Of a DNA stretch of 64,000 bases, positions 4,097 through 61,874 are shown in pieces. Within the stretch, counting starts at the first letter, position 1. Each line of letters starts with the position of its first letter. A model generated the notes under the pieces. The model was not told where the DNA came from, ran no database searches, and was given only the letters and a program-made list of their open reading frames with translations. The DNA is from an uncultured virus (IMG/VR IMGVR_UViG_3300032086_001957) (taxonomy: Duplodnaviria; Heunggongvirae; Uroviricota; Caudoviricetes): the IMG/VR virus record IMGVR_UViG_3300032086_001957, one strand, 5' to 3'. The position numbers and the translations under genes are program-made.

Positions 4097-4620
4097 TATG
4101 TTGTAATTATTCTTTCAAATTCTTGTTCTATTTGTGATATGAATTGAGAACGAATTAATCGTATCTTTCTTTTTATATCTTGTACTGATTCTTCATATTG
4201 ATAATTAGAAACTGCAACTGCATCAACTGGTATTGTTGTTGCACTTTCATTTGGTAATTCAATCTTTACTGTTGTATCACCAGATGTTTGAAATATTTCA
4301 TAATGATGTATTGCGGCTGGATTATCATACTTTTCTTTTACAAAATTTTCAAACTGTTGTACTGACATAGGCCATTGTGTATATACATCTATAATGTTAT
4401 TTGCAACTAGTATAACCCAATGTAAGTTTGGGTCACCATATACCTCATTTGCAATCATCTCTGGTGTTTGACCAGACTTAACATCATAGTAATCAAAACT
4501 GACACTATCTAAAATTTTAGAATTAAAAAATCTAACTCTACGAGTAATGTCTGTCATTGTATAATTGACACCATCACCTTTTACTTCGTAATCTATTTTT
4601 GGAAATTTTTCAAAGTACAT
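4096..4620 (-). CDS. gp53: Baseplate wedge subunit gp53
   Basis: MYFEKFPKIDY, TPEMIA..VYGDP.LHWVIL..N, WP, IHHYE. Confidence 0.9.
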   Translation of the reverse strand: MYFEKFPKIDYEVKGDGVNYTMTDITRRVRFFNSKILDSVSFDYYDVKSGQTPEMIANEVYGDPNLHWVILVANNIIDVYTQWPMSVQQFENFVKEKYDNPAAIHHYEIFQTSGDTTVKIELPNESATTIPVDAVAVSNYQYEESVQDIKRKIRLIRSQFISQIEQEFERIITT

Positions 4621-4622
4621 TT

Positions 4623-5588
4623 TTAAAATCCATCCATAACTTTATCTTTAGTAATAATTTCAAGTTCTTTAAATTGTAAATCTAGTTGTGTTTCTGCTGG
4701 ATAACCATCTTTAAAAAACTGTGGTCTTTCACCACCATATTTTACATTTACTGATTCTAAAACACAAGTTGATATGTGGTGTATTTTATCTCTGACATTA
4801 AGACTATATTGTATATCAAATGTTGATGGTGCGATAAGAGTTCTTCCTGCAAGACCTGTTGGACTGACTTCTGGTAATGACTGCATACGAAAAACATCTA
4901 CAATATTTTTTACTGTTTCTGCTTCTTTACTTGAACGAGGTATCATTCTAAATGAATATGAAAATGATCTTCTATCAATACCTTCAAATTTCATTTCAGT
5001 TCTATTGTTTGTAGTTTCACCTTTTGCAATTGCAAATGCGGCTTTAGCACCAGTTGCACCTGCACCTTCAACTGCATTTACTACAACTTGTTGAACCTCA
5101 CCTTTTCCTTTACCAATAGCATTTGCAGCTCCTTCTGTTATACCTTTCAGAGTAAATGACATATTTGCAAGTCCTTTTTTACCTGCAAGGAAACTTGCAA
5201 CACCTAAACCTATTTCTGCTTCACCATAGTTTGTTTTATGTGCAACATTTACTTGTGCAGGTAAAAATAATGTTATTGAACCAAGAGTTCTTGTAGTGGG
5301 AGCTGTAGGAACAAAAACATTAGTTGGTTCTCTTTCTTTTTTATATGACTTATCTGGAGTCCATCTTATTACTCCATTATCCTGTTGATTAACAAAAAAC
5401 TGAATATAATGTTCAGTTCTTTTCATTGTTGCAACATCTTGTGGATAAACCAATCCAGCCGCAAATGCGTCAGATAAACCTGTGTTTTCTACTTGATTCT
5501 CTGGTTGTGAATTAGAGAGTGTGGAGTTTCCATTATTATTCTCTACTGGAAATGTAGCTCCACCATAGTCTGGCACATATTTTGACAT
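4623..5588 (-). CDS. gp48: Baseplate tail-tube cap gp48
   Basis: FEGIDRRSFSYSFRMIPRS.KEA, CVLESVNV.Y, L.FKELEIITK. Confidence 0.85.
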   Translation of the reverse strand: MSKYVPDYGGATFPVENNNGNSTLSNSQPENQVENTGLSDAFAAGLVYPQDVATMKRTEHYIQFFVNQQDNGVIRWTPDKSYKKEREPTNVFVPTAPTTRTLGSITLFLPAQVNVAHKTNYGEAEIGLGVASFLAGKKGLANMSFTLKGITEGAANAIGKGKGEVQQVVVNAVEGAGATGAKAAFAIAKGETTNNRTEMKFEGIDRRSFSYSFRMIPRSSKEAETVKNIVDVFRMQSLPEVSPTGLAGRTLIAPSTFDIQYSLNVRDKIHHISTCVLESVNVKYGGERPQFFKDGYPAETQLDLQFKELEIITKDKVMDGF

Positions 5589-24458: not shown

Positions 24459-24812
24459 TTATTCTTTATTTGAATAAGTTTCTTTTTGATGTAGTTTTAC
24501 AAAATATTCTGCATCAACTACAATTAATGGTTTCTTTCCATTCTTTTTCATAACAACTATTGGTTCATAATTGTTACTATTGTCTATCGCTTGATTATAT
24601 GCTTCCCATACATTAAGTTTCTCTACATTTTTACATTCGATAGAATATGGAAACTTTTCTCTAGCCGCACGAGCCATAATTAAATCTTCACCAGACGCAC
24701 CCATTGAACGACTTTCTACATCTTCAGGGTGAACACCTAATTGTTCTACAAGTTTATCTCGAATCCATTGTTGTAATCTACGACCTTTTGATTTTGCACT
24801 TTGAGTTTTCAT
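24459..24812 (-). CDS. Holliday-junction-resolvase-like PD-(D/E)XK nuclease
   Basis: SAKSKGR.LQ, MGASGEDL, SIECKN, A..QA. Confidence 0.8.
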   Translation of the reverse strand: MKTQSAKSKGRRLQQWIRDKLVEQLGVHPEDVESRSMGASGEDLIMARAAREKFPYSIECKNVEKLNVWEAYNQAIDNSNNYEPIVVMKKNGKKPLIVVDAEYFVKLHQKETYSNKE

Positions 24813-25426
24813 TTTCTGTTTCTTATTTCTTTGACAGCAGGTAAACCTAATATTTCCCTTTTATCATATTTAAAATCTGCATAAGGCCCATTCTTATCTA
24901 CATAATGTAAAAATACTTGTATTTGTTTTTTACTGATGTTGATATTTCTCCAATGGTCACATTCTGTTCCTTGATACACACACATATCACCAACATTTAA
25001 AGGTAAAGGTTTTTCTTCTCCTTTTAAATCTTCAAACCAAATATCCCAAGGATTTTCTTCAATGTATAATGGAAGTGTTACAGAATATTGACATGAGGGT
25101 CTATCTTTATGTCGTCTTAAAGTGTCTTTGTGTTTATATATTCTTGCATAAGAATAACAAGGATATAATTCTTTTTGAATTATTTCTTCAACTTTAGGTA
25201 GTAATTGTAATAATAATGTTTCTGTGAAAAATGCACTATAACAAGAAAATGTTGATGGTGCTTGACTATCACCAAAATTCCACACACTTATACTATTTTC
25301 ATTAATATTTTCTCTATGTAGTAGTGCTTTAGAATATAATGTAAATTCGTTTGCAATAAATTCACATAAGTTTTTTTCTATTGCATTTTTTTCAATATGA
25401 TAACCATATTCATAAAAACCATTCAA
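24809..25426 (-). CDS. 2OG-Fe(II) oxygenase
   Basis: YSYARIY, HKDRPSC, GD...Y.G....HWR, QVFLHYV. Confidence 0.88.
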   Translation of the reverse strand: MNGFYEYGYHIEKNAIEKNLCEFIANEFTLYSKALLHRENINENSISVWNFGDSQAPSTFSCYSAFFTETLLLQLLPKVEEIIQKELYPCYSYARIYKHKDTLRRHKDRPSCQYSVTLPLYIEENPWDIWFEDLKGEEKPLPLNVGDMCVYQGTECDHWRNINISKKQIQVFLHYVDKNGPYADFKYDKREILGLPAVKEIRNRK

Positions 25427-40901: not shown

Positions 40902-42149
40902 TTACTTATCCCAATTTTTTATTGCTGTAAAGTTATTAAAACTAAATTCCATTCTGTCAACAAGTTTAACTGCATTTCCTTTTACTCTATCAATTGCAAC
41001 ATAACCTTCTGGATTTGTTACTTTGTATCCATTTGCAGTTTTGATAAATGTATCTGTTAACTGTCTAACATTATTTAGTTTCTTCACTACAGCCATTTTT
41101 GCATTGACAATGTGATTCTGAAAATCTACAATGTTTGATAAATTAACTGTATGTTTTTTTAATTCTCTTAATACTTCTGTCTTTTTAACTTTTACTTTTT
41201 CTTTACTTTTATCTGTCTTTAATTTATTCATCTGTTTATCAAATGCATTTTCAACCCACTTTAAATAACCTTGTGCGTGTTTCTTTGCATCTGATACTGG
41301 TTTACCTTCTCTTACTTTTGAATTGTTATATGTTTTTAAACCTGCACTTGCATACACACCAGTAAATGTATTTTGTAAATTTAAAAAACTCTTTAACAAT
41401 GACGAATTAATTTTTCTAAAAGTTTTACCTGCATTTGATAAATGTTTTGTTACAATTGCAGTTTCTTTTTCAGTCATTGTTGCTTTACCTGAAACATCTT
41501 TATAAGTTGCATCATCAGTCCATACTGAAGATACTTTATTTAAATTAGATACATCTGCACCAAATGAAGCTTTCATATCTTGTAGTGCATCACCTGTGTA
41601 AGTTGTATGCCATACAACACCAACTTTTGCATTTTTAATTTGTTTGCCTAAATCAGAATCTACTGGAACTGCATAAACAATTGTATTAGGTTGAAATGTA
41701 TAATAATTTGTTCCATCTATATTTTCTGTATTAATATCATCTGATGTAAACATTAAGTCACCTTGCAAAACACCTTTAATATTAAGTTTAGAAAATTCTG
41801 CAAGTGCAACTTTAAATTTGTCATTAAGTTGTCCAGATAAATCTGCATCAATCTCTGCAACTGATTTATAAAGTTTAGGATTAATATTAAATACAGATTT
41901 CTTTGCAACAAAAAATTTATTATCTTCAGGATCAATACCAGCAAATATTGCTGGAGCACCATCCCATTTTACAGTCATGTTAATTGATGAACGACTAGAA
42001 CCTGCTAACATATCTCTTAATGATTGAACAAAATTAATTGCAGCTCTACCACCATCAACACCATAGTTTAGAATCTCATCTTCGATATGTTCGAGATGTA
42101 AATTCTTACCACCTTTATCTTCTTTTAAAAATGTACTAAACCTTATCAT
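40902..42149 (-). CDS. DUF6267-like protein, ATP-dependent ligase/nucleotidyltransferase fold
   Basis: NLHLEHIED, TVKWDGAPA (KxDG), QGDLMF, FQPNTI.Y, PEGYV, KLVDR.EFS. Confidence 0.7.
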   Translation of the reverse strand: MIRFSTFLKEDKGGKNLHLEHIEDEILNYGVDGGRAAINFVQSLRDMLAGSSRSSINMTVKWDGAPAIFAGIDPEDNKFFVAKKSVFNINPKLYKSVAEIDADLSGQLNDKFKVALAEFSKLNIKGVLQGDLMFTSDDINTENIDGTNYYTFQPNTIVYAVPVDSDLGKQIKNAKVGVVWHTTYTGDALQDMKASFGADVSNLNKVSSVWTDDATYKDVSGKATMTEKETAIVTKHLSNAGKTFRKINSSLLKSFLNLQNTFTGVYASAGLKTYNNSKVREGKPVSDAKKHAQGYLKWVENAFDKQMNKLKTDKSKEKVKVKKTEVLRELKKHTVNLSNIVDFQNHIVNAKMAVVKKLNNVRQLTDTFIKTANGYKVTNPEGYVAIDRVKGNAVKLVDRMEFSFNNFTAIKNWDK

Positions 42150-44907: not shown

Positions 44908-45196
44908 ATTCCATACTTCCTTCTTCAATTTGTTTGTCCATGATATCAACTAGGATATCCCCTATTAAATTAAAAAAATCTTCTTGCATATCTTCTTTTG
45001 ATAAACCATTTGAATCTAATATATCCCATTCAAACTTTAACGGCATATTACCATTTTCATCTTCATCTGCAAATGATACTTTTCCATAACGATAAACAAC
45101 ACCTTGGTATTTACCTGCATCTTTTGTCAAGCCTATTCCTGTCCAAGTTTGTTTTTCATTTACAACATATGTGTACTTACTACTAATATCAGACAT
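44870..45196 (-). CDS. Conserved protein at the gp40 position
   Basis: G.Y.GVVY.YGKV, L.FE..I, IGDILV; between uvsX and gp41. Confidence 0.6.
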   Translation of the reverse strand: MSDISSKYTYVVNEKQTWTGIGLTKDAGKYQGVVYRYGKVSFADEDENGNMPLKFEWDILDSNGLSKEDMQEDFFNLIGDILVDIMDKQIEEGSMEYVNTDNRENDIK

Positions 45197-45749
45197 AATG
45201 TAAATAACTTCCTATAATATATTTTGGTTCTTTGACTGGTTTGATTCCTGTATGAACATGAGTCCATAATGGTGGAAACATTAATAGTTTTCCAGTTACA
45301 GGTTGAACAGACATTCTATAATTTGGAAAATATGTATGTCCATGTTCATTGTCAGATAGATAAACAAAGAAAACTAAAAATCTTCTTGCACTTTCATAAT
45401 CACCTACATCAACATGATAATCAAACATATCTTTATTGTTAGGTAAATATCTTTTCATACGAAACATTTCAAATGCAAACTTTTCTGGAAATACTTTGTA
45501 TGAAAGCAAATCACAATCTTTTGAATATGTTTCTATATATGAAAAAAATACTTTCTGAAGCTTCTCACAATACTTTTTCCAATTTTCATGATGTTGTAAT
45601 GTGATTTGTTTAAATGACATTTGATCTTCAAAAACAACATTTTCTTGTTGTGTTGGATTGTTTTCAAAATGTTCAATTAACTCTTTACATAAAGATGTTT
45701 CGATAACATTATCATAAACTCTTATATATGAATCACTCAACTTCTGCAA
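45189..45749 (-). CDS. Prolyl-4-hydroxylase-like 2OG-Fe(II) oxygenase
   Basis: FDYHVD, RFL.FF.YL, FPP.WTH.H.G, KYI..SY. Confidence 0.9.
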
Positions 45750-46773
45750 CCTCTACTTGATTACCATACTTGAATTCTTTTTTACAAGCATCTTCTAATT
45801 GATTCATAATATCTTCTGTAAAATACTTTTCAGGTTCTTTGTTGATTTGTTTACCAAATGCTTTAGTACCATCAGGTAATTCATATCTTGTTGATACTTT
45901 CTTTATTATACCATACTTTTCTGCTAAGTCAAGTAAACCATAATATCTATCTAAACCTTTATCATATGACAATCTAACATCTACCATTTTGTTTTCTATT
46001 GTCAATCTAGATTTATGATTCTTACAATGAATAATGTTACCTACAACTTCTGTACCATCTTTCTCTTTTCTTTTTGAAAGATAAACAATAGATGAAGCTG
46101 CATACTTTAATCCAGAGCCTCCACCCATTTCCTTGCTAGCGTACATACTTCCAATAACATCATATGTGTGATTTGTAATTACCATTGGTAATTTTGCACG
46201 ACCTAATTTTAAAGTGATAACTCTAAATGTTGCTTTTAACACCTGAGCTCTCGTCATATCCTTTGTAGCTGATCCAGCTGAAGAATCTTCTAGCTCTTTA
46301 GAGGTGCTTAACATCCCTAATGAATCAAGACATAACATCATTTTCTTTCTATCTGATTCAGGTGTTTCAAGATACTTATTTAAAACTCGAAGCACTTCTG
46401 TTCTAAATTCTTGAACAGTTGTTACAGGAAGAATAATCATTCTCTTTGGATCAATACCTCTATCAATAACCATTTGTTTTGTTATTGCACTTTCTGATTC
46501 AAAATATAAAACTCCTGCATCTGGATTTTCATCAAGGAACGACTTAACCATGCCCATCAAGAAAAAGGTTTTGCCTGTCGCAGATTCGCCGGCAAGTGCC
46601 GTGATTTTATTTGAAGGTAATCCACCATGAATACTTCCAGACAATAAACCATTTAATACATAAGAACCTGTATCAATAAAACTATCTACATCACCTGCTT
46701 CTACTCCATCTTCTACAATTGAAGCATATTCATTACCTGAAGCCTTCAACATATCTTTTAAAAAATTACTCAT
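45733..46773 (-). CDS. uvsX: RecA-like recombinase UvsX
   Basis: [36 protein letters not shown]. Confidence 0.96.
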
Positions 46774-47177
46774 AAATCACCTTCTTTTCTGTTATTAGAA
46801 TTAAACTCACTAAAACCGCCTGGGTATCTATCTTCTAATTTGTTAATATTCATTTCTATTACTTCTTCTAAATCTGTATCAAGTGCAATACAAGCTTGAC
46901 AAACATACCAAAGTATATCACCTAATTCTCTTTTCAAATGAAACTTGGTTTCTTCTTCAATAGGTTTTCCTTGGAATACTATCTTCTTAATAATTTCTGC
47001 GAACTCACCAGATTCTGATGACAAACCCATTGCGGCTGTAATAATTCTTTCTGGTGGTAATCTATGTTCTCTAATTAAGTCAATTGTATCTTTAAAATAT
47101 CTTGTGTCTTTTGATTGTTGACTAGTTGTAAAATCTACAAAATCTTGATACTTTTTTAAATAACCATTTTTAATCAT
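46770..47177 (-). CDS. MazG-like NTP pyrophosphohydrolase
   Basis: [23 protein letters not shown]. Confidence 0.9.
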
Positions 47178-47197
47178 TATATATTCTCCTTAATCTC

Positions 47198-48037
47198 TTA
47201 TCTTATATAATTACTATTCCCTATGCACCAAAAACAAGACTTCTCATTTTTATCTACAATTTGTTCCATCATTTCAAAAGATTTAGATTCATAAATCATA
47301 TCCAATTCAAATCCAACATTCTTTTGTAATAATTTATTATAAGGATATTTACCAGTATGATATTCATACTCATATTCCCAAACTGCACCTTCCAAGTTTT
47401 TATGTATATCTTTTCGTCTATCAAATCCAAAAGGTTGTAATGCAACTACCTTAAATTGTTTTTGAAACAAACGAACACCTTCAATAACACCAGTAAATGT
47501 CATACCACTTCCAAGTGGAACATACAAGGTATCACAATCTACATTTTTTACTTGTTCTGCAATTCTACCTACAATAGATGAACGATATCTTTGAGCCGCA
47601 TAACCAAATAAAACTTTAAACATTGGTCTTTCTTCTGCGAGTTTATTTAAGTTTGCATATAAAACATTATTGAAACCTTGCGATTCACTTAACACGACCA
47701 TTTCAGAACCCAAGTCTGCACATAGTTTCATCGCTTTATTCTTAAGTGCTTTTTCTACAGTTGTATTACCAAATCCAATAATTGATTTCAAACCAAATTC
47801 TTCTGCAACTTTTGATACGATAACTGCTTGTGGTGAGTGAATAGAACTTGCAGTAGAAATAGTACCACCACATTCTTCTTTGATATATTCAAGATTTGTT
47901 TTTATCAAATCTCTACATTGTCTAATTTTACCACCAGTTACAAAATTTTCACCATATGGTGCATATAAATCATCTCTTTTAAAAAATATACCATTGTGTT
48001 CTTCAACTGGTGTCAAACCCTCATCATAATTTATCAT
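47198..48037 (-). CDS. Fold-type II PLP enzyme (ACC deaminase/D-cysteine desulfhydrase-like)
   Basis: LTPVE....FKRDD, GGKIRQ, SPQ, GSGMT, LD.IYESK. Confidence 0.8.
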   Translation of the reverse strand: MINYDEGLTPVEEHNGIFFKRDDLYAPYGENFVTGGKIRQCRDLIKTNLEYIKEECGGTISTASSIHSPQAVIVSKVAEEFGLKSIIGFGNTTVEKALKNKAMKLCADLGSEMVVLSESQGFNNVLYANLNKLAEERPMFKVLFGYAAQRYRSSIVGRIAEQVKNVDCDTLYVPLGSGMTFTGVIEGVRLFQKQFKVVALQPFGFDRRKDIHKNLEGAVWEYEYEYHTGKYPYNKLLQKNVGFELDMIYESKSFEMMEQIVDKNEKSCFWCIGNSNYIR

Positions 48038-49293
48038 ACAAAAAAGTTCTCCAAAGTATTTCTTTTAATATCTTTAAACAAATCTATTTCTTTGTCTTTA
48101 CTGAAACACCATACATTTTCAATATATGTTTTATTCATATATTCTGTCATTGCAGTCTTATCAAAGTTACCATCTTTATCAGAAAAAACAGCTTTACCTT
48201 GTGGTCGAGCCATTATCCTCATACCAATTTGACCCATAAAATATGGAAGTAACATATCTACAAGTTCATCACCAGAACGATACCTTTTTCCTTTTACTTT
48301 TGGATCGAGAATATTCACCATCATTACACCATTATCTGATAACGAATCAAAAGTATTTTGTGATACTGGTAAATAAAAATTATCTCTCCAAGATTCATAT
48401 TCATTAAACTTGAACCATGATTGTAATTCTTGTTTTTCACCACCCTCATTGTATCTTTCAGTAGAAAAATATGGTGGTGAAGTAAATGCACAATCAACAT
48501 TGTTAATTTCATTCCAAGGTAAATCTTCTGCACCACAATTATACATCTTTACAGTTTTCTTATTACCAGTAAGTTTATTCCAAAAATCAATCATCTTCTG
48601 GTATCTTTTAAATGTATTAGGATTTGGATCACAACCAATGTAATGAGTTGCGTTAGAAGCATAAAAGCCTGTAAGTCTATCACCCCAACCCATAGAAGTA
48701 TCTAACACAGTTTTTGCATTGGTCATATTATAAATTGTTTTCGCAACAATAGGTTTGAACTGTGTTGCAATATAAGTACCCAATCTAAATGACATTGTGT
48801 ATGTATCTGGTTGTAATTCTTGTTTGTCATTTACACCTCTCCATATAGGCCCAAACGCACCCCAGATGTTATCACCCTCATTCCATCTTTTTACTGGAGA
48901 ACTGAATCCATATGAACCACACGACATTCTTAAATCATTCATAAATGAATCTGCACAATAATTAAATACAGATGGACAATCAATTACACCTAATCCATAT
49001 TTGTCATATGAATATTTGTAATCGTCATATTTTTCCATTACATTATCAGGTTGACTTAAGTAAGTTGTATAATCTGCTTTTTGTAATTTACGAAAATTAT
49101 CAATTACTTTTTCTGTACTGAATTCTTTGAGAGGATATGGTGGTTTTTCTTTCGTAATAAACTCTGCAAGGGTTTTACGAAAAACTTCTTTACCATATTT
49201 TTCTGTGGTATTAAGAAACATGGACTTCTGCATTACAGGAAGTCCATTGTTGTTCACGCATTTTTTCAATAAATCATATAATTCTTCATTCAT
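48034..49293 (-). CDS. SAM-dependent amino-DNA-methyltransferase-fold protein
   Basis: QFKP..AK.IY, VLDTSMGWGDRL (motif I), YIGCDPN, FTSPPYF..E.Y (motif IV). Confidence 0.8.
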   Translation of the reverse strand: MNEELYDLLKKCVNNNGLPVMQKSMFLNTTEKYGKEVFRKTLAEFITKEKPPYPLKEFSTEKVIDNFRKLQKADYTTYLSQPDNVMEKYDDYKYSYDKYGLGVIDCPSVFNYCADSFMNDLRMSCGSYGFSSPVKRWNEGDNIWGAFGPIWRGVNDKQELQPDTYTMSFRLGTYIATQFKPIVAKTIYNMTNAKTVLDTSMGWGDRLTGFYASNATHYIGCDPNPNTFKRYQKMIDFWNKLTGNKKTVKMYNCGAEDLPWNEINNVDCAFTSPPYFSTERYNEGGEKQELQSWFKFNEYESWRDNFYLPVSQNTFDSLSDNGVMMVNILDPKVKGKRYRSGDELVDMLLPYFMGQIGMRIMARPQGKAVFSDKDGNFDKTAMTEYMNKTYIENVWCFSKDKEIDLFKDIKRNTLENFFV

Positions 49294-49300
49294 AATATAG

Positions 49301-49329
49301 AGTATACACTAAAAAATTGTTGTTGTCAA
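49301..49329 (-). promoter_or_regulatory. Sigma70 promoter, probably leaderless MTase mRNA
   Basis: TTGACA-17-TATACT; ATG at 49293. Confidence 0.7.
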
Positions 49330-49330
49330 A

Positions 49331-49576
49331 CTAACCAAAAAGAGTTTCTTGATTCTTTTCAGGGTCATCTTCTCCGTGAGCTTCATAAGGATAATGCTTG
49401 ATAAGTGTATTTAATTTATCTTCTGCATCAGTTAGTTTTTTCAATTCACAATCTACTGCACTTACTAAATCAGGATGTTCTCCTACACCAACTGGATTAT
49501 TCCTGTACACCTCAATGTTTGCCTTTGCAGATGCAATTTCATATTGATATTTTGCTCGTAAAGCTTTTATAATCAT
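49331..49576 (-). CDS. Conserved small hypothetical protein
   Basis: A.ANI.VY..NPVG.GEH.D. Confidence 0.75.
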   Translation of the reverse strand: MIIKALRAKYQYEIASAKANIEVYRNNPVGVGEHPDLVSAVDCELKKLTDAEDKLNTLIKHYPYEAHGEDDPEKNQETLFG

Positions 49577-49980
49577 TCTTCTGTCCTTTTATTTCCAATA
49601 TTATATTTTGTTTCTAAAATCCATTCTCCCTTTTCTTTAAATGAAATTACTTTGATTTGAGAGAGTGGTGCTTTGTTATCTATGTTACCAACTACTTCGA
49701 CTAAACCCCAATCTTTTAATAGTTGAGCTATAGAATTTCTTCTTGCAATGTCATTACCTGATATGTTAGTTTGTTTGCCGTCTAGAGCAAACAACTCTTT
49801 GAAATGTACTAGGTAATAACTTCCTTGCTTGTGTAGGATGTGACAACTTTGATATAACTTTTTTTCTTTTCGAGATGCAACACCTATTCTTGAAAGTGTT
49901 TCTCTAACTTTTAAAAAGTCATCTGGTTCTTTTAGTTTGATTTCGAGCATCTGCTCTGGATTCCATATTACATCATTCAT
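49573..49980 (-). CDS. regA: Translational repressor RegA
   Basis: PDDFLKVRETLSRIG.AS, LYQSCHILHKQG.Y..VHFKELF.LDG. Confidence 0.97.
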   Translation of the reverse strand: MNDVIWNPEQMLEIKLKEPDDFLKVRETLSRIGVASRKEKKLYQSCHILHKQGSYYLVHFKELFALDGKQTNISGNDIARRNSIAQLLKDWGLVEVVGNIDNKAPLSQIKVISFKEKGEWILETKYNIGNKRTEE

Positions 49981-50363
49981 TTTCTTCCACCTTTGTTTAG
50001 TTTTTTTCTTATAGTGGTTATTTGTTCTTTAGTTAGTATCTTCAGAGCCGTTTTAGCCTTTTCATTACTATAACCATAATACTCTTTTACATACTCTATG
50101 TCTTTAATTTTACCACTTCTGACATAAGGTTCAAATCGCTTTCGCTTTCTAATACTATTTAGTAAAAAGTCAAATTGTAACTTTTTGTCTAAATGATGCC
50201 TCATGTTAATCTCATTGACTAACATAATTGTGTCATTGTGTGGTGCTAGACATTTATTAACAATGTAAGGTGGATATTTCTTCTTCCAAGTTTCATCATC
50301 ACTATCTAGTAACTTTTCTTTTGTGTAATTAATTGCGTTTAGATAATCTTTTAATTCGTACAT
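49977..50363 (-). CDS. gp62: Clamp loader small subunit gp62
   Basis: YPPYIVN, NE.N, QFDFL.NS.RKRKRF, YYGYS..KA. Confidence 0.93.
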   Translation of the reverse strand: MYELKDYLNAINYTKEKLLDSDDETWKKKYPPYIVNKCLAPHNDTIMLVNEINMRHHLDKKLQFDFLLNSIRKRKRFEPYVRSGKIKDIEYVKEYYGYSNEKAKTALKILTKEQITTIRKKLNKGGRK

Positions 50364-51301
50364 TACTTAAACTTCACTTGTGACATGGTTTCTAACATAA
50401 ATGCTAACATATTAATTTCTTGATCGGCTACAAATGCAGACTTGTATTGATAATCTGCAACTAACAAAACTAAATGTGGTACAGTTGATGGTTCAATCTT
50501 ATCATACAATGTATCATATATCTTTTTAAATATAGACGCATCATTATCAAGATTGTTTACAACCCATTTACGAATAGATTTAAAATCTTTTTCTTTTAAG
50601 AATGTTACTAAATCTTTCATATTAGTTTCTGAAATACTAACTAATATACCTGAATCAATTTTACCTGATGCAGAATATCTTTGTAACTCATTCAATATTC
50701 TTCTCCAATCAGGGAAATGTTTTTGAATCAATTCAACAACTGGTCTTGGTTCAAAATCAATTTCTTCTTCAGTTAAAATAGTTTCTATTCTTTTGAAAAA
50801 AGTTTGTGCAAGTTTTGGTTTCTCAGCTGTGGGTATTACAAAATCAACACCAGAACATCTTGATTGTAAAGGTTCTAGAATTTTGTTTTTGTAATTACAA
50901 GTAAATATGAAACCACAATTCTTATGAAATTCTTCAATAAAACTTCTTAATGCAGGTTGAACAGATTCAGGATTGAGATAGTCTGCTTCGTCAAGAATAA
51001 CATACTTTCTTTCACCACCAATAGACATTGTAGAAGCAAAGTTTTTTATCTTTGTTCTTAAAACATCTATCTGTCTACCTTCATCAGAACCATTGATTAG
51101 AATATAAGTACAACCTAATTCTTCTAATACTGCCTTTGCAACAGTAGTCTTTCCTACACCAGGCTTACCTGATAATAGTAAATTAGGTATGTGTTTATTA
51201 TCTACAAATTTTTGAAATGTATTTTTTATTTCTTTTGGTAAAATACAATCACCAATCTTGTTGGGTCGATACTTCTCGACCCAAAGCATCACATCATTCA
51301 T
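50363..51301 (-). CDS. gp44: Clamp loader ATPase gp44
   Basis: LWVEKYRP, GVGKTT, DEAD, SRC, FPDWRR..NELQ. Confidence 0.96.
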   Translation of the reverse strand: MNDVMLWVEKYRPNKIGDCILPKEIKNTFQKFVDNKHIPNLLLSGKPGVGKTTVAKAVLEELGCTYILINGSDEGRQIDVLRTKIKNFASTMSIGGERKYVILDEADYLNPESVQPALRSFIEEFHKNCGFIFTCNYKNKILEPLQSRCSGVDFVIPTAEKPKLAQTFFKRIETILTEEEIDFEPRPVVELIQKHFPDWRRILNELQRYSASGKIDSGILVSISETNMKDLVTFLKEKDFKSIRKWVVNNLDNDASIFKKIYDTLYDKIEPSTVPHLVLLVADYQYKSAFVADQEINMLAFMLETMSQVKFK

Positions 51302-55601: not shown

Positions 55602-56924
55602 TTATTTCATAAATTCTGCTAGTGGTGATATTACTTTTATTCTTGAATTTGCAATATCGTAATATTCCTTTTCTTTTTCAATTCCTATAAAATCAAAACT
55701 TTCATCTTTTGCGGCCATACCAGTTGAACCACTTCCCATGAATGGGTCTAATACTGTACCACCTTTTGGTGTTACCAGTCTGCAAAGATATTTCATTAAC
55801 TTTAATGGTTTCACAGTTGGGTGTGTGTTCTTTCTTTCGACAACTCTGTTTAGACCAATACCTTGTCCTTTATCATATCCATCACCTTTACTCTGGGCTC
55901 CATTACTCATACCCACCTTTTTAGTATCAAAGTTATCTAATCCTTGATTTCTTTCAGACTTTGATGCTTTTGCACAATAGAAATATCTTGATGCAGAACC
56001 CTCATCTCCATATGATGTTGCGTTTCCTCTTTTCAATGGTGGTATCACACCTTTACTTGACTCACCTACTTTTGCATTACCATTAGATACAAAACCTTTT
56101 GAGTTTGGAAATATATCTTGTACGACATCACTACCATCATGTATAACATTTGCAGGGAATCTACCTCTTGGGTCTGCATCTGCAAAATGATTATCTTCTT
56201 GTTTCATTCCAGAGTTTTTATTTGTCCAGACTCCATCTTCACTTCTTGATTTACGAACTACCTTTTTTCTTTTTACATTCTGTGTCTGACCAAAACTTAA
56301 TTTGTCAATTCCTGTATTTTCTTTTGATTGTTTTCCTTGGTCACGAAAATCTGGATTAGTATCTGGATATTTTGCATCACTATTTTCTGTTCTACAATCA
56401 TCAATATTAATACCACCAGTTCCATGTTTTAATACATTATTTACAACAGACTTTTCTGATATTGGTTTTCTTGCCATTACGATTGGTTCATGTGCAGGCT
56501 TGAGTGAAGTTCCCCAACCCTTTCCAATATTCATACTCTTTGGAAATCCACTTCCATACAACCACATAATCTGATCTCTGATTTCAAATCCAGCATCTTC
56601 TACTGCAACTGCCATTCTATGATAAGTTCTACTTCCAGAAAATGCAAGTAAATGACCACCAGGCTTCAATAGTTTAAAACAAAGTTCCCAAGTTTCTTTA
56701 CGAAATGCAATATCACCACCATCCCATTCTTTACCCATAAAACCAGTATTAACTCTAGTATAAAGTCCGTCTTTATCTGTACAAGGTGCAGAACCTTCTT
56801 TACCATATCTTTTTGTGATAGATGTTAAATGATATGGTGGGTCTGTTACAACTGAATCTACCTGAACACCATCATCAATAAGTTTTTCCATTTCTTTAAT
56901 GCAATCACCATTAAGTAACAACAT
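55602..56924 (-). CDS. N4/N6 DNA methyltransferase (beta class)
   Basis: GDC, VTDPPY, LKPGG, W.YGSGFPK, HPTVKP..LM, DPFMGSGST. Confidence 0.93.
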   Translation of the reverse strand: MLLLNGDCIKEMEKLIDDGVQVDSVVTDPPYHLTSITKRYGKEGSAPCTDKDGLYTRVNTGFMGKEWDGGDIAFRKETWELCFKLLKPGGHLLAFSGSRTYHRMAVAVEDAGFEIRDQIMWLYGSGFPKSMNIGKGWGTSLKPAHEPIVMARKPISEKSVVNNVLKHGTGGINIDDCRTENSDAKYPDTNPDFRDQGKQSKENTGIDKLSFGQTQNVKRKKVVRKSRSEDGVWTNKNSGMKQEDNHFADADPRGRFPANVIHDGSDVVQDIFPNSKGFVSNGNAKVGESSKGVIPPLKRGNATSYGDEGSASRYFYCAKASKSERNQGLDNFDTKKVGMSNGAQSKGDGYDKGQGIGLNRVVERKNTHPTVKPLKLMKYLCRLVTPKGGTVLDPFMGSGSTGMAAKDESFDFIGIEKEKEYYDIANSRIKVISPLAEFMK

Positions 56925-58626
56925 GACTAAAATTCCTTTCTTTCTTAAAATGAACAACACTTCTAAACTTATCATACAAAATATCTTGTTTGTGTGATAT
57001 AACAAATATATTTTCGTCTTGAAAAGTATTCAATATTTTTAAAAACTCATCTGTACCATTTGCATCTAATGAGCTATCAAATATCTCATCAAGTATTAAT
57101 AGATTTGTACTTACACTATTTTTCATCTTTGCAACAGCTCTCCAAGTGAATAATAATGCTAAATCTATTCTCATCTTTTCACCCTCTGAAAAGTTTGCAT
57201 ATGAAAATACATCTCTAAATCTTGACTTAATTGTTTCATTAAAATTTTCGTCAATGTTAAAGTTAACAAAAAAATCCATACTTGTCAAGTAAGTGTTTAT
57301 TAACTTATTCATAATAGGTAAATATTGTTTTACAATTTTTGTTTTAATACCAGAATCTTGTAATAAATTCTTTGCAACATCAATATAAAATTTATCTACA
57401 TTATATTTTTGTTTTAATTCTTCTAGTGTTTTTAATTCACCTTCAAGTGAACCTAACTTCTTTACATCTTCATCAGATATATCTTTATTACTATATTTTG
57501 TATTGTCTGATTCTAATTTACTATTAAACTTTTTCAATTCATTTAATGATGTTGTAAGTTTTGCAGTTTCTACTTTGATACCATCTAACTTTGTTTTACA
57601 TTTATTCCATGCAGATAGTTTACCTTTTTCAGTTTTTTCCATATCTGAAAGTTCTTCTAAAGCTTTATCTAATTCTTTTATCTTTGTATTGAAATCATTT
57701 ATCTTTTTCTGTTTAAATTCATCAGTAATGACTTGTTCACAGGTTGGACAATCATCATGATCTTTCCACCAATCAATCTGATTATCAAAATGTGATTTCT
57801 TGTTTTCTAATTTACCACTTGTTGAATTTATCTTTGTAACTTTCTTTGTACTTTCTTCATATGCAACAGAATCAATATTTTTATTTTCTTTATCATATTC
57901 TTCTTTGAAAGTATTTAATTCTTTTGTTTTACTATCAATAGTTTTATTGTTTTCTGATATCTGGTCATTGTTACTCTTAATAATTGATTCTTTGTTTTCA
58001 CTTAAATCTTTTATATACTTCTTATGTAAGTCTATTTCTTTTTGAGTGATAACCATTTTATTTTCTAATGCAGTTGTATTCTCTAGTAGTTCTTTTGCTT
58101 TTGTTTTGAGAATAACATTCATTAAAGAAAATATTTTTATATCTAAAATATCTTCAACAACTTCTCGTCTTACTTTTGATGACAATTGCATAAAAGGAAC
58201 AAATGTTGATGTTCCTAAAATAACAACTTGAGTAAATGAACGATAGTTTAATTTTAGAATATGTTGTTCTAATTGTTCTTGATAATCTTTTGCGGCCGCA
58301 TCTTGATTCATTAATGTGTCATCAACATAAACTTCAAACTTGTTTGGTTTTATACCACGAACAATTTTTACATACTTACCATTTGTTTCAAGTTCTATTT
58401 CAACTACAGTTCCTGATTCGTTTATTGAATTTACTAATTGTGATTTTGTGATTGTTCGATATGGTCTACCAAATAAACCAAAACATAGTGCATCAAGAAT
58501 GGTAGATTTACCTGCACCATTTTCACCTACAAATAATGTTGTAGGATTTCTATCAATCTGAATTTCTGTAAAGTTATTACCTGTACTTAACAGATTCTTA
58601 TATCTCACATATTTAAACTTTAACAT
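56911..58626 (-). CDS. gp46: Recombination nuclease ATPase gp46 (Rad50/SbcC-like)
   Basis: GENGAGKST, CPTC zinc hook, FSEGEKMRID, LDEIFDSSLD, VISH. Confidence 0.97.
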   Translation of the reverse strand: MLKFKYVRYKNLLSTGNNFTEIQIDRNPTTLFVGENGAGKSTILDALCFGLFGRPYRTITKSQLVNSINESGTVVEIELETNGKYVKIVRGIKPNKFEVYVDDTLMNQDAAAKDYQEQLEQHILKLNYRSFTQVVILGTSTFVPFMQLSSKVRREVVEDILDIKIFSLMNVILKTKAKELLENTTALENKMVITQKEIDLHKKYIKDLSENKESIIKSNNDQISENNKTIDSKTKELNTFKEEYDKENKNIDSVAYEESTKKVTKINSTSGKLENKKSHFDNQIDWWKDHDDCPTCEQVITDEFKQKKINDFNTKIKELDKALEELSDMEKTEKGKLSAWNKCKTKLDGIKVETAKLTTSLNELKKFNSKLESDNTKYSNKDISDEDVKKLGSLEGELKTLEELKQKYNVDKFYIDVAKNLLQDSGIKTKIVKQYLPIMNKLINTYLTSMDFFVNFNIDENFNETIKSRFRDVFSYANFSEGEKMRIDLALLFTWRAVAKMKNSVSTNLLILDEIFDSSLDANGTDEFLKILNTFQDENIFVISHKQDILYDKFRSVVHFKKERNFSHVVT

Positions 58627-59242: not shown

Positions 59243-60303
59243 AATTCTAAATCACTAGCTTCAACATATAAAGATTTCATCATACTTGTTAATCTTTTCT
59301 TATCAATATCAACATCAAGTTCTTCAATATACTTTTCTAATAAAGTTGTGGTATCTTCTGCATTTTCTACAATTTCATCAGATACATTTTCTGCACTTAA
59401 ATCAGAAAAATCTTCTACAATCTTTACTTCGTATGTTCCTGCTTTTGTTAAACAAGTGTCAATAAATCTATCAAACTTATACAAGTCTTTTTTATTTACA
59501 ACAATTACTTTTACATATTTTTCATTTAATTGTGTAAAATCAAATTTATCATAATCATTAGTTGTATCATCATAATAAACTTTATGGTATATTGTATATG
59601 GATTTTCTATTCTTGTCAAGTTTCTTGTTTCTGTATCGAAAACATGAAAACCTTTTGGGTCTTGATAATCAGCCCAAGTGATTTGATATGTTGTTCCAAG
59701 ATAAAAAATATGACCATCATCAGACTTCTTGTGAAAGTGACCAGAAAATACTGTATCAAACATTTGAAACATATCTCTAGGATAACCATTTTCAGAAAAT
59801 TGTCCTTTGTGCATTTCAAAACCATTTATTTCTAAATGACCAAAACAAACTTGTGCATTTGTTTCTTTCATTTGTTTAACAGTATTATTATAATTTTCTA
59901 CATTAATCCAAGGAATAAAAAATAAAGGCAAACCATCAAATTCAACAGTTTGACATTCTGAATATATTTTTATTTTATCTGATTTACCATTTACTAATTC
60001 ATCTAAAGAATTTACATCATTTGTATTTTTATAGAATGTATCATGATTACCAACTAACATATGTAAGTTGATATTTAAATCTATAAATCTTTGAATAAAC
60101 TTTTCTCTAAAGTCTTTTGCAATCTTATATGATACAAATTTTCTTCTATCCATAACATCACCAAGATGTATAACTGTATCAATGTTATTTTCTTGTATGT
60201 AAGGAAAAAATGTATTATCCCAAAACTTATAGAAATAAGAATTGAAATTATCATTATCATTTCTTGCACCGAAATGAGTGTCAGTAATTAAAGCTATCTT
60301 CAT
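59239..60303 (-). CDS. gp47: Recombination nuclease gp47 (Mre11/SbcD-like)
   Basis: TDTHFG, HLGD..D, GNHD, GHLE, SGHFH. Confidence 0.97.
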   Translation of the reverse strand: MKIALITDTHFGARNDNDNFNSYFYKFWDNTFFPYIQENNIDTVIHLGDVMDRRKFVSYKIAKDFREKFIQRFIDLNINLHMLVGNHDTFYKNTNDVNSLDELVNGKSDKIKIYSECQTVEFDGLPLFFIPWINVENYNNTVKQMKETNAQVCFGHLEINGFEMHKGQFSENGYPRDMFQMFDTVFSGHFHKKSDDGHIFYLGTTYQITWADYQDPKGFHVFDTETRNLTRIENPYTIYHKVYYDDTTNDYDKFDFTQLNEKYVKVIVVNKKDLYKFDRFIDTCLTKAGTYEVKIVEDFSDLSAENVSDEIVENAEDTTTLLEKYIEELDVDIDKKRLTSMMKSLYVEASDLEL

Positions 60304-61874
60304 ATTTTATCAACTAAACCTGAATGTGTAGGAAATGATATTTGTTGTATTTCATTATTATCAAGTTTTCTTAAAAAATTAAGATGTGATTCACTTTGCG
60401 TTTCGACTACTGATTTAAATAAATTTATTGTATCATCTATCGTGGGTGATAGATTTTCTGTACCTCTCATTATCATTTTATCAGTTTCTATCATACCCAA
60501 ACCATATGCAACTGATAACCAACCATGATTATTAAAATTTACACCCCAAACATTTTTATCAACCATAAAGTGTTGATAATCACCATACTTAATTGTGTCT
60601 ACCATATAGTTTACAAAATCACTAGATTTATAAGTTTCTCTAAATGATTTCCAAAATACACTATCTTTTCTTTTTCCTAGGTAATGAAAGTGAATAAAAT
60701 CTTTTACATGATCTGATGAATTAGACATTATCCTACTATACATTTCTCTAATGTAATTTACATTATCTTTCTCATACAATGCGTGTTTTAAATTATTCAA
60801 CTGCGATACTTGAGTTATAGTAAACATAATTGAAGTAGCCTCTAATGGTTCAACAAAACTAGAAGATAATCCTACTGCAATACAATTTTTATGCCAGAAC
60901 TTTTCTAGTCTACCACCAGTAAATTTTATATTCTTTTTAACTTCTACTTCACCATATCTTTCTTCAATTTCTTTTATTGCATCATCAGTTGTTGTAAAGT
61001 TATTATCAAAAATATATCCTCTACCAATTCTATGTCTTAAAGGTATTTCAAATACCCAACCATTTTTCATTGCAACTGAATTTGTATATGACATTATTTC
61101 GTCATCAGGATTTGTATCTTTAGGAAATATAATTGCTTCATTTACAGCTAAATCTTTATATACTTTCCAATTGATATTATATTTTTTGTTCATAATTAAT
61201 CTTGCAAAACCTGAACAGTCAAAAACAAAATCACATTCAATATCACCAAGTTCTTTAAGTTTCAAAGATTCAATATATCCATCTTCGTCTAAATTTGCAT
61301 CTAGGTACTCATCATCAATAATTTCTATATTTCTTTCAATACATAAGTTTTTAAAATATTCTGTTACTAAAAAATTATCAAAATGTAAAGCATAACTTAA
61401 ATTATTTAAACTAACTTTATTTTGTTCTGATAACATTGCACCTAAATGAGATTCATGAAAATTATAGTTTTTATGTATTCCATGTCTTACATAATCTGCA
61501 TAACAACTAGTAGGCATTACGCCTGGTATGTGAAACATTTCTACATATTCTTTTGATGGTGTAAATGGATGATAGTAATAAGTATTATCACCATTCCAGT
61601 TTTCAAACTTTATACCATTCTTTATAGTTGATTTTGTTTTAGAAATAAAATCTTTTAAATTTATTCCTAAAAAATATTGCATGAAATGAACAACTGGTGG
61701 AACAACAGCTTCACCTACACCTATAGTTCCTTTTTCTTCACTCTGAACCACTACAACATCAGTTCTTATATTAGTTGTCATTCTTTGTAAAAACAATGCA
61801 GTCATATATCCTGCATTACCACCACCTAAAACTACTATTTTTTTATTTTTCATTTTTCTTTTTTTCCTCATCAT
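60300..61874 (-). CDS. Tryptophan-halogenase-like flavoprotein (start may be 61853)
   Basis: GGGNAG, IGVGEA, K.GI.FENW, DCSGF, GWVFEIP, FVEPLEATSI. Confidence 0.9.
   Translation of the reverse strand: MMRKKRKMKNKKIVVLGGGNAGYMTALFLQRMTTNIRTDVVVVQSEEKGTIGVGEAVVPPVVHFMQYFLGINLKDFISKTKSTIKNGIKFENWNGDNTYYYHPFTPSKEYVEMFHIPGVMPTSCYADYVRHGIHKNYNFHESHLGAMLSEQNKVSLNNLSYALHFDNFLVTEYFKNLCIERNIEIIDDEYLDANLDEDGYIESLKLKELGDIECDFVFDCSGFARLIMNKKYNINWKVYKDLAVNEAIIFPKDTNPDDEIMSYTNSVAMKNGWVFEIPLRHRIGRGYIFDNNFTTTDDAIKEIEERYGEVEVKKNIKFTGGRLEKFWHKNCIAVGLSSSFVEPLEATSIMFTITQVSQLNNLKHALYEKDNVNYIREMYSRIMSNSSDHVKDFIHFHYLGKRKDSVFWKSFRETYKSSDFVNYMVDTIKYGDYQHFMVDKNVWGVNFNNHGWLSVAYGLGMIETDKMIMRGTENLSPTIDDTINLFKSVVETQSESHLNFLRKLDNNEIQQISFPTHSGLVDKI

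Follow-up and report, generated by a model that had tools for sequence, protein, structure and literature searches.

Comparison across phage genomes strongly supports the view that a methyltransferase-fold (MT-fold) gene and a gene for a fold-type II PLP enzyme, adjacent in a 64,000-nucleotide stretch of viral DNA (the window), form a functional pair among DNA-modification genes. We propose, at slightly less than an even chance, that together they make up a two-step module for the post-replicative hypermodification of DNA bases, present as an exchangeable cassette, in which transfer of the 3-amino-3-carboxypropyl (acp) group of SAM would be followed by decarboxylation.

Results

The MT-fold, PLP and MazG genes that a sequence-only reading had described were all present (Table 1), and the stop codon of the MT-fold gene indeed overlaps the start codon of the PLP gene in ATGA. 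A gap of 20 nt separates the PLP gene from the MazG gene, and there is an AAGGAG ribosome-binding site. The phage of the window is marine and T4-like, and the pair lies within its replication-gene cluster. No close DNA relatives were returned when the region was compared by megablast with the phage collection.

Table 1. Positions of the features discussed, numbered from the first nucleotide of the window
Feature	Position	Strand	Description
MT-fold gene	48034..49293	-	419 aa; class I SAM fold with SPPY
PLP gene	47198..48037	-	279 aa; fold-type II PLP enzyme
MazG pyrophosphohydrolase gene	46770..47177	-	135 aa; Pfam MazG
UvsX gene	45733..46773	-	After MazG
Sigma-70-like promoter TTGACA-N17-TATACT	49301..49329	-	11/12 match; within the 37-nt spacer that precedes the MT ATG
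SAM-binding motif I variant	48673..48708	-	VLDTSMGWGDRL; MT residues 196-207
Motif IV SPPY	48469..48480	-	MT residues 272-275; within the invariant SPPYFxxExY signature
K37 codon, GGKIRQ	47927..47929	-	Predicted Schiff-base lysine; invariant in 24 aligned family members
Exchangeable MT-PLP cassette	47191..49328	.	Flanks match the nearest record, G001, at 93% and 97% identity
DPPY methyltransferase	55602-57005		VVTDPPYH and C-terminal VLDPFMGSGSTG; Pfam N6_N4_Mtase 123.9 bits

MazG was identified by Pfam (45.7 bits, cutoff 22) and by phrog_229 (1e-51). It had been counted as a member of the pathway. We instead regard it as an independent neighbour of the pair on the same strand, since in relatives MazG is found upstream of UvsX both with and without the PLP gene. 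The separate, conventional DPPY methyltransferase that had been pointed out further along the window is real. PHROG and Pfam scans of window ORFs of at least 90 aa detected neither an hmU kinase nor an aGPT-Pplase, in agreement with the earlier statement that no hmU kinase was recognised. With the same two resources, no company of 5-hmdU kinase, aGPT-Pplase/radical-SAM isomerase and dUMP hydroxymethylase was found in the 64-kb window, and its thymidylate synthase is ThyX.

The pair had also been credited with a dedicated early promoter. Sites of this type number 20 region-wide, against 20.2 (sd 3.9) in shuffles, and thus the sequence match alone is not significant. In most of the nine relatives compared, a TTGAC...TATAAC/TATAAT pair was observed at the same position upstream of gp43. 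The site is therefore the conserved gp43 promoter and not one dedicated to the pair; it now precedes the MT-fold gene because gp43 was lost from that site in the window phage.

Our analysis shows the PLP family to be a DNA-hypermodification family. The window protein matched Pfam PALP (40 bits, cutoff 35) and fell into phrog_3650 (E 1.2e-26), the family of ViI gp226 and M6 gp52. The same profile scored a ViI-like protein (6e-242) and the PLP protein of phage Montesquieu (7e-46), whose gene adjoins an aGPT-Pplase2 gene. Amino acids carried on DNA bases are decarboxylated by ViI gp226 and M6 gp52 (PMC8989533), the only family members known to do this. The AF2 model of the window protein (pLDDT 93.9) had as its top structural match 1j0a, an ACC-deaminase homologue (TM 0.74), with D-cysteine desulfhydrase also among the best. 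The fold-type II scaffold, the Schiff-base lysine and the glycine loop were all found, and G176 of the phosphate-binding GSG loop was invariant in aligned family members. The likeness to ACC deaminases and D-cysteine desulfhydrases is in fold only. Significant sequence similarity to characterised members was not found: when PDB sequences were searched with phmmer, the sole match was a cysteine synthase at E 0.54.

Besides the common phrog_3650, the window PLP protein resembles gp226 and gp52 in an aligned lysine within a G-x-K-x-R-Q motif and in approximately 24% identity over 96% of its length; it also has the fold-type II scaffold of gp226, with 1j0a as best template for both (for gp226, as given in PMC8989533). 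It differs in length (279 aa versus 397) and in belonging to a separate, well supported clade: in the PLP tree, the MT-associated PLP proteins form one 37-row clade (support 99/96) that includes the window protein. Its partner is likewise different, namely, an MT-fold enzyme and not a 5-hmdU kinase with aGPT-Pplase or radical-SAM isomerase. Because the window has no 5-hmdU pathway, the known substrate of the family is absent from it, and with an MT-fold partner the substrate of the window enzyme must be a different DNA adduct.

The MT-fold protein was assigned to phrog_12517, and its family comprises 4169 cluster representatives at E<=1e-3. It shares with the amino-methyltransferases (PF01555; gamma-class (N/D/S)PPY) the class I fold, the motif I glycine loop and the amine-binding SPPY. 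S272-P273-P274-Y275, a sequence of the (D/N/S)PP(Y/F) type, showed no variation among 16 close members or among 43 diverse ones. Several differences were observed. The Pfam N6_N4_Mtase (PF01555) score, 26.5 bits, is borderline and under the gathering cutoff of 26.7, and the match spans only positions 1-110 of the 221 in the profile, the motif IV half. Motif I (196-207) precedes motif IV (272-275), whereas PF01555 has the beta-class order (IV before I). Motif I itself is an unusual SxGWGDR with an invariant Asp-Arg; in the family, D198, G202, W203, G204, D205 and R206 are invariant. There is also a conserved N-terminal domain of about 170 residues (approximately residues 1-170) without match to a known domain. 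Finally, the protein is paired with a PLP enzyme, and methylation provides that enzyme with no substrate.

Structural comparison placed the MT-fold model (AF2, pLDDT 83.8) broadly among class I methyltransferases. Foldseek against the PDB returned generic members of this class only (TM 0.26-0.33), and VIA-align wide returned many types of them at Z 11-14 (up to 14.3), the closest including TrmN, Trm11, Trm14, METTL5, RsmC and HemK2. The acp transferase TYW2 (3a27) scored Z 11.5, among many methyltransferases at 11-14, and the aminopropyltransferase BpsA scored Z 11.4. With methyltransferases at up to Z 14.3 and TYW2 at 11.5, the fold gives TYW2 no preference and is compatible with methyl and with acp transfer. 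Sequence searches against solved structures, with the single protein and with a profile, gave no match. Family members occur as fusions with ParB_N, with full N6_N4 DNA methylases, with HTH domains and with a DNA polymerase A domain, and Dam methyltransferases are fused to or adjoin some MT-PLP family members. Among uncultured marine T4-like phages, a large group has the MT-fold family positioned after the DNA polymerase gene. Genes at the equivalent position in Melnitz and HTVC008M were considered as MT homologues and rejected (blastp E > 0.3).

The proposal of a pair had been made to depend on co-occurrence in other genomes, and the two genes do co-occur. An MT gene adjoins the PLP gene in 46 of 72 non-redundant PLP loci, in both orders (MT then PLP in 38, PLP then MT in 8) and usually with an overlap of a few bases. 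The remaining loci have a radical-SAM gene adjacent instead (7), are evaluable with neither gene (8) or were not evaluable (11). The genes remained adjacent where MT identity was 30-55%, and across five or more gene contexts, and all five long PLP contigs without an adjacent MT gene had an MT-family match elsewhere on the contig. Moreover, three MT-PLP fusion proteins (P0264, P0324 and L194) were obtained from a profile-free representative search and from the loci; the PLP-family HMM scored P0264 at 9e-54 and P0324 at 2e-15. A word-based search for longer MT homologues found only three, none with a PLP domain, and no relative of the P0264 fusion was found in the genome collection.

The dependence between the two genes is not symmetric: PLP genes lie mostly beside an MT gene, whereas MT genes often occur without an adjacent PLP gene. 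In 43 of 80 MT loci, the MT gene reaches UvsX without any PLP gene, and 70 of 78 diverse MT loci from genome bins have none within approximately 4 kb on each side. Cultured Bacteroides and Staphylococcus phages encode distant MT homologues and had no PLP match. No alignment column separated MT proteins with an adjacent PLP gene (16) from those without one (11). The MT product must thus be useful alone, and the simplest explanation of this would be plain methylation. The MT-PLP module was also found, as a gp1-gp2 pair, in the cultured mycobacteriophages AlanGrant and Vincenzo, and the prediction is therefore open to direct test.

In place of the pair, record G001 carries 4.4 kb encoding HNH, Asn-synthase-like and CmoA-like proteins together with an SPPC-containing C5 methyltransferase, a cassette resembling CmoA/CmoX/CmoY cytosine hypermodification. 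Genes recurring beside the pair in other genomes are Asp/Arg-hydroxylase-like (one fused in P0364), LPG_synthase_C-like (fused in P0324; neighbours in L246, L248, L090 and L130) and spermidine-synthase-like (after the pair in L090 and L130, after the MT gene in L053). Such neighbours would fit an amino-acid or amine adduct. The idea that the variable slot after the MT gene is purely a tailoring toolkit was rejected, as SbmA/BacA and HNH genes are found there too.

Discussion

In the mechanism that we propose, the MT-fold enzyme would bind SAM, and its SPPY pocket would take an exocyclic amine, N6 of A or N4 of C. The acp group, not the methyl group, would then be transferred, presumably with release of methylthioadenosine. 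Acp is chosen because it alone, among the groups that SAM can donate, has the alpha-amino acid required by a PLP decarboxylase. By analogy with its characterised homologues, the PLP enzyme would join the free alpha-amine of DNA-bound acp in a Schiff base and decarboxylate the acp, the end product being a cationic N-(3-aminopropyl) base. Where a phage has only the MT gene, modification would end at the first product, other phages would add further tailoring genes, and the pair would be transcribed from the conserved gp43 promoter. Counting against this reading, ordinary amino-methyltransferases have the same SPPY and fold, and the window lacks the 5-hmdU pathway and with it the substrate known for the PLP family. 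Searches of the open-access literature returned no description of a DNA module combining a methyltransferase fold with PLP.

A precedent for the first step is TYW2 of wybutosine synthesis, a methyltransferase-fold enzyme that moves the acp of SAM onto a base; the side chain is tailored afterwards by a 2OG oxygenase and methyltransferases. The likeness lies in the mode of transfer proposed here and in the fold match reported above. TYW2 has no specific sequence relationship with the window protein, however, and its target is a carbon of a tricyclic base in tRNA. We know of no PLP step in that pathway. The CmoA/CmoX/CmoY 5-carboxymethylcytosine system of Synechococcus phage S-B43 (PMC12783734) similarly repurposes a phage SAM-fold enzyme for non-methyl transfer and tailors the product, and its look-alike fills the slot in G001. 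It differs in using a C5 methyltransferase with SPPC, a Cx-SAM synthase and an amide ligase on C5 of cytosine, with no PLP enzyme. Mom of phage Mu carries out tRNA-dependent adenine N6 hypermodification, likewise a post-replicative modification of an exocyclic base amine in double-stranded DNA, and is described as a single GNAT enzyme without need for SAM or PLP (PMC13219725). Some loci with the MT-PLP pair also contain aminoacyl-tRNA-transferase-like (LPG_synthase_C-like) genes; a Mom homologue was not found in the window.

Other explanations were weighed against these data. The MT-fold protein could be an ordinary DNA N6-adenine/N4-cytosine methyltransferase with a novel target-recognition domain, sharing a variable slot with an unrelated PLP gene that encodes an auxiliary metabolic enzyme similar to ACC deaminase or D-cysteine desulfhydrase, or a scavenger of SAM by-products. 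This would fit the SPPY and motif I, canonical for amino-methyltransferases, the far wider distribution of the MT gene than of the PLP gene, the hypervariability of the slot after it, with its unrelated SbmA and HNH genes, and the solved structures closest to the PLP model (1j0a and D-cysteine desulfhydrase). We nevertheless consider it unlikely in view of three independent fusions, adjacency in both gene orders and several genomic contexts, and the MT-family matches on five of five long PLP contigs lacking an adjacent MT gene; moreover, the PLP sequence matches phage hypermodification enzymes (1e-26) and no solved cellular enzyme (best E 0.54).

Two further readings appear less probable. The same end product would arise in the reversed order, if the PLP enzyme made decarboxy-SAM from free SAM and the MT-fold protein were an aminopropyltransferase acting on the DNA base, with decarboxy-SAM supplied by host or phage SpeD where the PLP gene is missing. 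MT genes without an adjacent PLP gene and MT sequences indifferent to its presence would then be accounted for; genes resembling spermidine synthase, a user of decarboxy-SAM, recur after the pair (L090, L130) or the MT gene (L053), and aminopropyltransferases such as BpsA (Z 11.4) share the class I fold. However, the SAM decarboxylases known to us are pyruvoyl enzymes, and a diffusible cofactor would make fusion less needed, although the cofactor-making CmoA and CmoX adjoin their transferase. The characterised PLP relatives, moreover, use DNA-bound amino acids and not free SAM (PMC8989533), and we judge the reversed order very unlikely. That the target is tRNA or rRNA (as for Trm11, TrmN, RsmC and TYW2), a protein or a small molecule is highly improbable in our estimate. 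The nearest structures do include tRNA/rRNA amino-methyltransferases and the protein methyltransferase HemK2, and the N-terminal domain has no assigned DNA-binding fold. To our knowledge, acp chemistry occurs only on RNA, which also counts in favour of such a target. Against it stand the substrates known for the PLP family, which are on DNA (PMC8989533), and the family fusions to ParB_N, N6_N4 DNA methylases, HTH and DNA polymerase A domains. The pair also sits among replication and DNA-modification genes, and G001 has a DNA cytosine hypermodification cassette in the equivalent slot.

By hypermodifying their DNA, phages overcome restriction and CRISPR defences, and these modifications are a source of new DNA-labelling enzymes. 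The PLP-dependent steps known to us so far all act on thymidine adducts built from 5-hmdU. If the two-step module is real, the gp226-type decarboxylase family would have been drawn into a second entry route that begins with a SAM-binding methyltransferase fold, and the DNA of the window phage would contain N-(3-aminopropyl) bases. It is a doubtful but possible extension that the MT-fold family represents the first DNA acp transferase, with optional partners building combinatorial amine adducts on A or C. Polyamine-like or amino-acid-like adducts drawn from SAM would then be placed on the exocyclic amines of these bases, in parallel to the thymidine hypermodifications on another base, and the optional partners would include the PLP decarboxylase and Asp/Arg-hydroxylase-like oxygenase, aminoacyl-tRNA-transferase-like and spermidine-synthase-like enzymes. 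The pair, if it acts as proposed, would also imply an undescribed base in phages that are abundant in the ocean and have relatives among those of SAR11 and OM43, with effects on the sequencing, cloning and restriction of their DNA.

The MT-PLP gene pair lies in the replication cluster of a marine T4-like myovirus

The window derives from a T4-like myovirus of marine origin. Its G+C content is ~30%, and its UvsX shares 79% identity with the Methylophilales phage Melnitz protein and 71% with the Pelagibacter phage HTVC008M protein; a search of deposited phages retrieved no close DNA match to the region. The sequence-only reading had described a gene for an amino-methyltransferase-fold protein with an SPPY motif (MT), a gene for a fold-type II PLP enzyme and MazG in succession, and this layout was found to be correct. 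The MT stop overlaps the PLP start (ATGA), and 20 nt separate the PLP stop from the MazG start. The separate DPPY methyltransferase was likewise present, as a regular beta-class enzyme, and PHROG and Pfam scans of window ORFs of at least 90 aa found neither an hmU kinase nor an aGPT-Pplase, in agreement with that reading. The thymidylate synthase of the window is ThyX.

Two other elements of the initial proposal were not retained. MazG had been taken as a pathway member; it precedes UvsX in relatives with or without the PLP gene and was thus excluded from the module. A dedicated early promoter had been assigned to the pair, but the TTGACA-17-TATACT site that fills the 37-nt spacer 5' of the MT gene corresponds, in position and sequence, to a promoter-like site upstream of gp43 (the DNA polymerase gene) in relatives. 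Most relatives have gp43 between p81 and MT, and it lies directly 5' of MT in 45 of 73 related IMG/VR loci having upstream sequence. The window and a 100%-identical contig (L003) lack gp43 there, so that the MT gene stands directly behind the promoter-like site; tblastn did not find gp43 anywhere in the 64-kb window. In G001, the nearest record, gp43 was observed in an unrelated context without similarity to the window.

The DPPY methyltransferase gene abuts gp46 and gp47. Its product has an insertion of ~300 residues that separates motif IV from motif I, and the Pfam match, to a profile of 221 positions, extends over residues 49-453; the TTG start listed for it is probably too far upstream. 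A tryptophan-halogenase-family gene between gp55 and gp47 (Pfam, 1e-100) and a second gene, whose PHROG match carries a ferrochelatase annotation, are auxiliary genes. DUF6267 occurs alone in the window and is joined to an ADP-ribosyltransferase exoenzyme domain in a 726-aa ORF of a metagenomic T4-like contig.

Coordinates of the MT-PLP region and of related features (L numbers, retrieved loci of relatives or homologues)
Feature	Location	Strand	Remarks
gp45, gp44, gp62, RegA, p81 (81-aa ORF), MT, PLP, MazG, UvsX, 2OG oxygenase, gp41	window, around the pair	all minus	
Spacer without gp43	window 49294-49330		
MT-fold ORF, 419 aa	window 49293-48034	minus	borderline N6_N4_Mtase match
PLP ORF, 279 aa	window 48037-47198	minus	PALP domain
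DPPY methyltransferase	window 55602-57005		
Tryptophan-halogenase-family gene	window 60300-61874		
Ferrochelatase-PHROG gene	window 24809-25426		
DUF6267 alone	window 40902-42149		
DUF6267 with exoenzyme domain	L136:6602-8782		
G001 replacement cassette	L177 = G001:C1:7700-12700		ORFs 429-2027, 2024-2848, 2890-4038, 3989-4726
Radical-SAM/PLP overlap	L139, L141 (3985-5846), L142, L143, L147, L152, L154, L158		beside terminase
Asp/Arg beta-hydroxylase-like (cupin) genes after MT	L007:4919-5497, L026:7253-8242, L044:7263-8387, L250:525-1700		
X350 + spermidine-synthase-like pair	L090:1961-3714, L130:4219-5937, L053:2445-4116		
X350 homologue only	L137:5859-6836		

The PLP enzyme is assigned to a family of DNA-adduct decarboxylases

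The best family of the window PLP protein was phrog_3650 (1.2e-26). ViI gp226 and M6 gp52 of this family are shown in PMC8989533 to depend on PLP and to decarboxylate O-serinyl- and C-alpha-glycinyl-thymidine in DNA, and 1j0a is named there as the best template for gp226. For the model of the window protein (pLDDT 93.9), 1j0a likewise ranked first (TM 0.74). A tblastn search with the window protein found 275 phage records, the majority of them ViI-like Ackermannviridae, and the alignments covered 96% of the protein at ~24% identity. The same PHROG was matched by the ViI-like protein (6e-242), by mycobacteriophage AlanGrant gp2 (3e-106), by radical-SAM-adjacent PLP genes (8e-47) and by the PLP gene of Glutamicibacter phage Montesquieu (7e-46), which adjoins an aGPT-Pplase clade 2 gene. 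K37 of GGKIRQ and the GSG loop were invariant in the family alignment, and K37 aligned with a lysine of the ViI-like protein. A sequence search of solved cellular enzymes gave no match (best E 0.54). Judged by sequence, the window PLP enzyme belongs to a family of DNA-adduct decarboxylases.

The MT and PLP genes are coupled

Linkage was assessed in 72 non-redundant PLP loci taken from contigs of viruses, a sample biased towards relatives of the window. MT adjoined PLP in 46 of them (MT upstream in 38, PLP upstream in 8), mostly with an overlap of 1-10 bases; a radical-SAM gene adjoined instead in 7, neither was present in 8 evaluable loci, and 11 were too short. Adjacency was kept where MT identity was 30-55%, and in contexts including gp43-MT-PLP-MazG, gp44-MT-PLP-gp62, gp46-x-PLP-MT-N6_N4 methyltransferase and MT-PLP-X350-SpeE-like-gp62. 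Moreover, three fused MT-PLP proteins were found (P0264, P0324 and L194). The first two, of 743 and 1385 aa, were the only matches to the PLP-family HMM among 150 representatives scanned (9e-54 and 2e-15), and P0324 also has an LPG_synthase_C domain. Five of five long PLP contigs without an adjacent MT carried an MT-family match elsewhere (E 7e-43 to 1.5e-9). In a second set, which included two tiny fragments, one of five did, and two complete genomes of the radical-SAM type had no MT-family match.

A maximum-likelihood tree built from 49 PLP sequences placed the PLPs that are linked to, fused with or distal to an MT in a single 37-row clade (support 99/96), which also takes in 6 rows without established MT status. 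Its sister was a clade of ViI-like, Montesquieu and AlanGrant proteins, with radical-SAM-linked PLPs outside; the root is a midpoint root only, and four rows have long branches. AlanGrant gp1, which overlaps gp2 (the PLP gene), combines a ParB domain with phrog_12517, the best-matching PHROG of the window MT. The genomes in which a radical-SAM gene overlaps a phrog_3650 PLP gene are small phage genomes without an MT-family gene, two of them 95-100% complete; a ParB_N gene lies beside the pair in at least L143. These genomes may carry M6-like 5-NedU pathways.

From the MT side, the link to PLP is optional. Among 80 loci found with MT, PLP lay downstream in 16, UvsX was reached without PLP in 43, and 21 ended too early; in genome bins, 8 of 78 diverse MT loci had a PLP gene within 1.3 kb. 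One of five MT contigs without an adjacent PLP carried one 50 kb away, all five being fragments (18-45% complete). No alignment column separated MTs with and without an adjacent PLP (16 versus 11, at 72-86% identity to the window MT). Distant MT homologues occur in cultured Bacteroides and Staphylococcus phages, and these phages were absent from the PLP tblastn matches.

The pair lies in a DNA-modification neighbourhood

Several observations point to DNA as the target. Compared with the window, G001 shows 93% identity over 45000-47190 and 97% over 49329-51000, and exactly the MT-PLP segment is replaced by 4.4 kb. This cassette encodes an HNH protein, an asparagine-synthase-like protein, a C5 DNA methylase with SPPC and a CmoA-like methyltransferase-fold protein. 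It resembles the CmoA/CmoX/CmoY genes of Synechococcus phage S-B43, which PMC12783734 links to 5-carboxymethylcytosine and to the glycine amide of this base. Since G001 has a CmoA-type cassette in the place of MT-PLP, this slot is an exchange hot spot for DNA-modification cassettes. MT-family proteins are fused to ParB_N, complete N6_N4 methylases, HTH domains, LAGLIDADG endonucleases and a DNA polymerase A domain, and their neighbours include Dam-type and N6_N4 methylases. Another locus (L052) carries a CmoA-like gene in the slot, 59% identical to that of G001.

The MT family itself is very large and unnamed. Of 3439 candidates in one search, 2127 proteins reached E<=1e-3; among representatives of clusters at 50% identity, 4169 reached E<=1e-3 and 1861 reached E<=1e-10. 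The window MT scored 26.5 bits against Pfam N6_N4_Mtase (cutoff 26.7), over the motif IV half of the profile only. Motif I precedes motif IV, and D198, G202-W203-G204-D205-R206 (motif I), D222-P223, E256, S272-P273-P274-Y275-F276, E279 and Y281 were among the residues invariant in 43 members (identity down to 26%). The N-terminal ~170 residues form a conserved domain without a family match. Sequence searches of solved structures with the MT gave no match. The AF2 model (pLDDT 83.8) resembles class I methyltransferases generally, including the amino-methyltransferases TrmN, Trm11, Trm14, METTL5, HemK2 and RsmC (Foldseek TM 0.26-0.33); the acp (3-amino-3-carboxypropyl) transferase TYW2 and an aminopropyltransferase matched it no better and no worse.

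Several genes recur beside the pair. In several loci MT is followed by an Asp/Arg-hydroxylase-like gene, and P0364 is a fusion of such a domain with an MT homologue; this type of protein might act as a second tailoring enzyme. One of these genes has a weak GNAT-domain match. X350, a 350-371-aa protein, is encoded 3' of MT-PLP in L090 and L130 and 3' of MT in L053, each time followed by a spermidine-synthase-like gene (211-216 aa); in L137, a distant 325-aa homologue lies 3' of the PLP gene without that partner. Atlas look-alikes of X350 include LPG_synthase_C and FemAB-like clusters, and L246 and L248 have weak LPG_synthase_C matches, below the Pfam cutoff, between the MT and PLP genes. Partners of these kinds would fit an adduct that carries an amine or an amino acid.

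A two-step hypermodification is the most likely role

We consider a two-step DNA base hypermodification, by MT and then PLP, most likely. The substrate of a PLP decarboxylase must carry a free alpha-amino acid. As the acp group of SAM is the only such group that a SAM-binding MT fold can donate, we infer that MT would transfer acp to a DNA base. SPPY is commonest in N4-cytosine enzymes, and the SPPY pocket suggests that the acceptor is an exocyclic amine. The predicted first product is an acp-base, from which the PLP enzyme would remove the carboxyl group to leave an aminopropyl-base. The main alternative is a decarboxy-SAM route, which would give the same aminopropyl end product. More soberly, MT may be a plain methyltransferase beside an unrelated PLP gene, which accounts best for the many MT-only genomes but does not account for the fused MT-PLP proteins or for adjacency being conserved whichever gene comes first.

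PLP tailoring is already known from phage DNA hypermodification; no description of its pairing with an MT-fold protein was found in the open-access papers and preprints searched. Under the two-step acp pathway, phages with MT alone would keep the acp-base.
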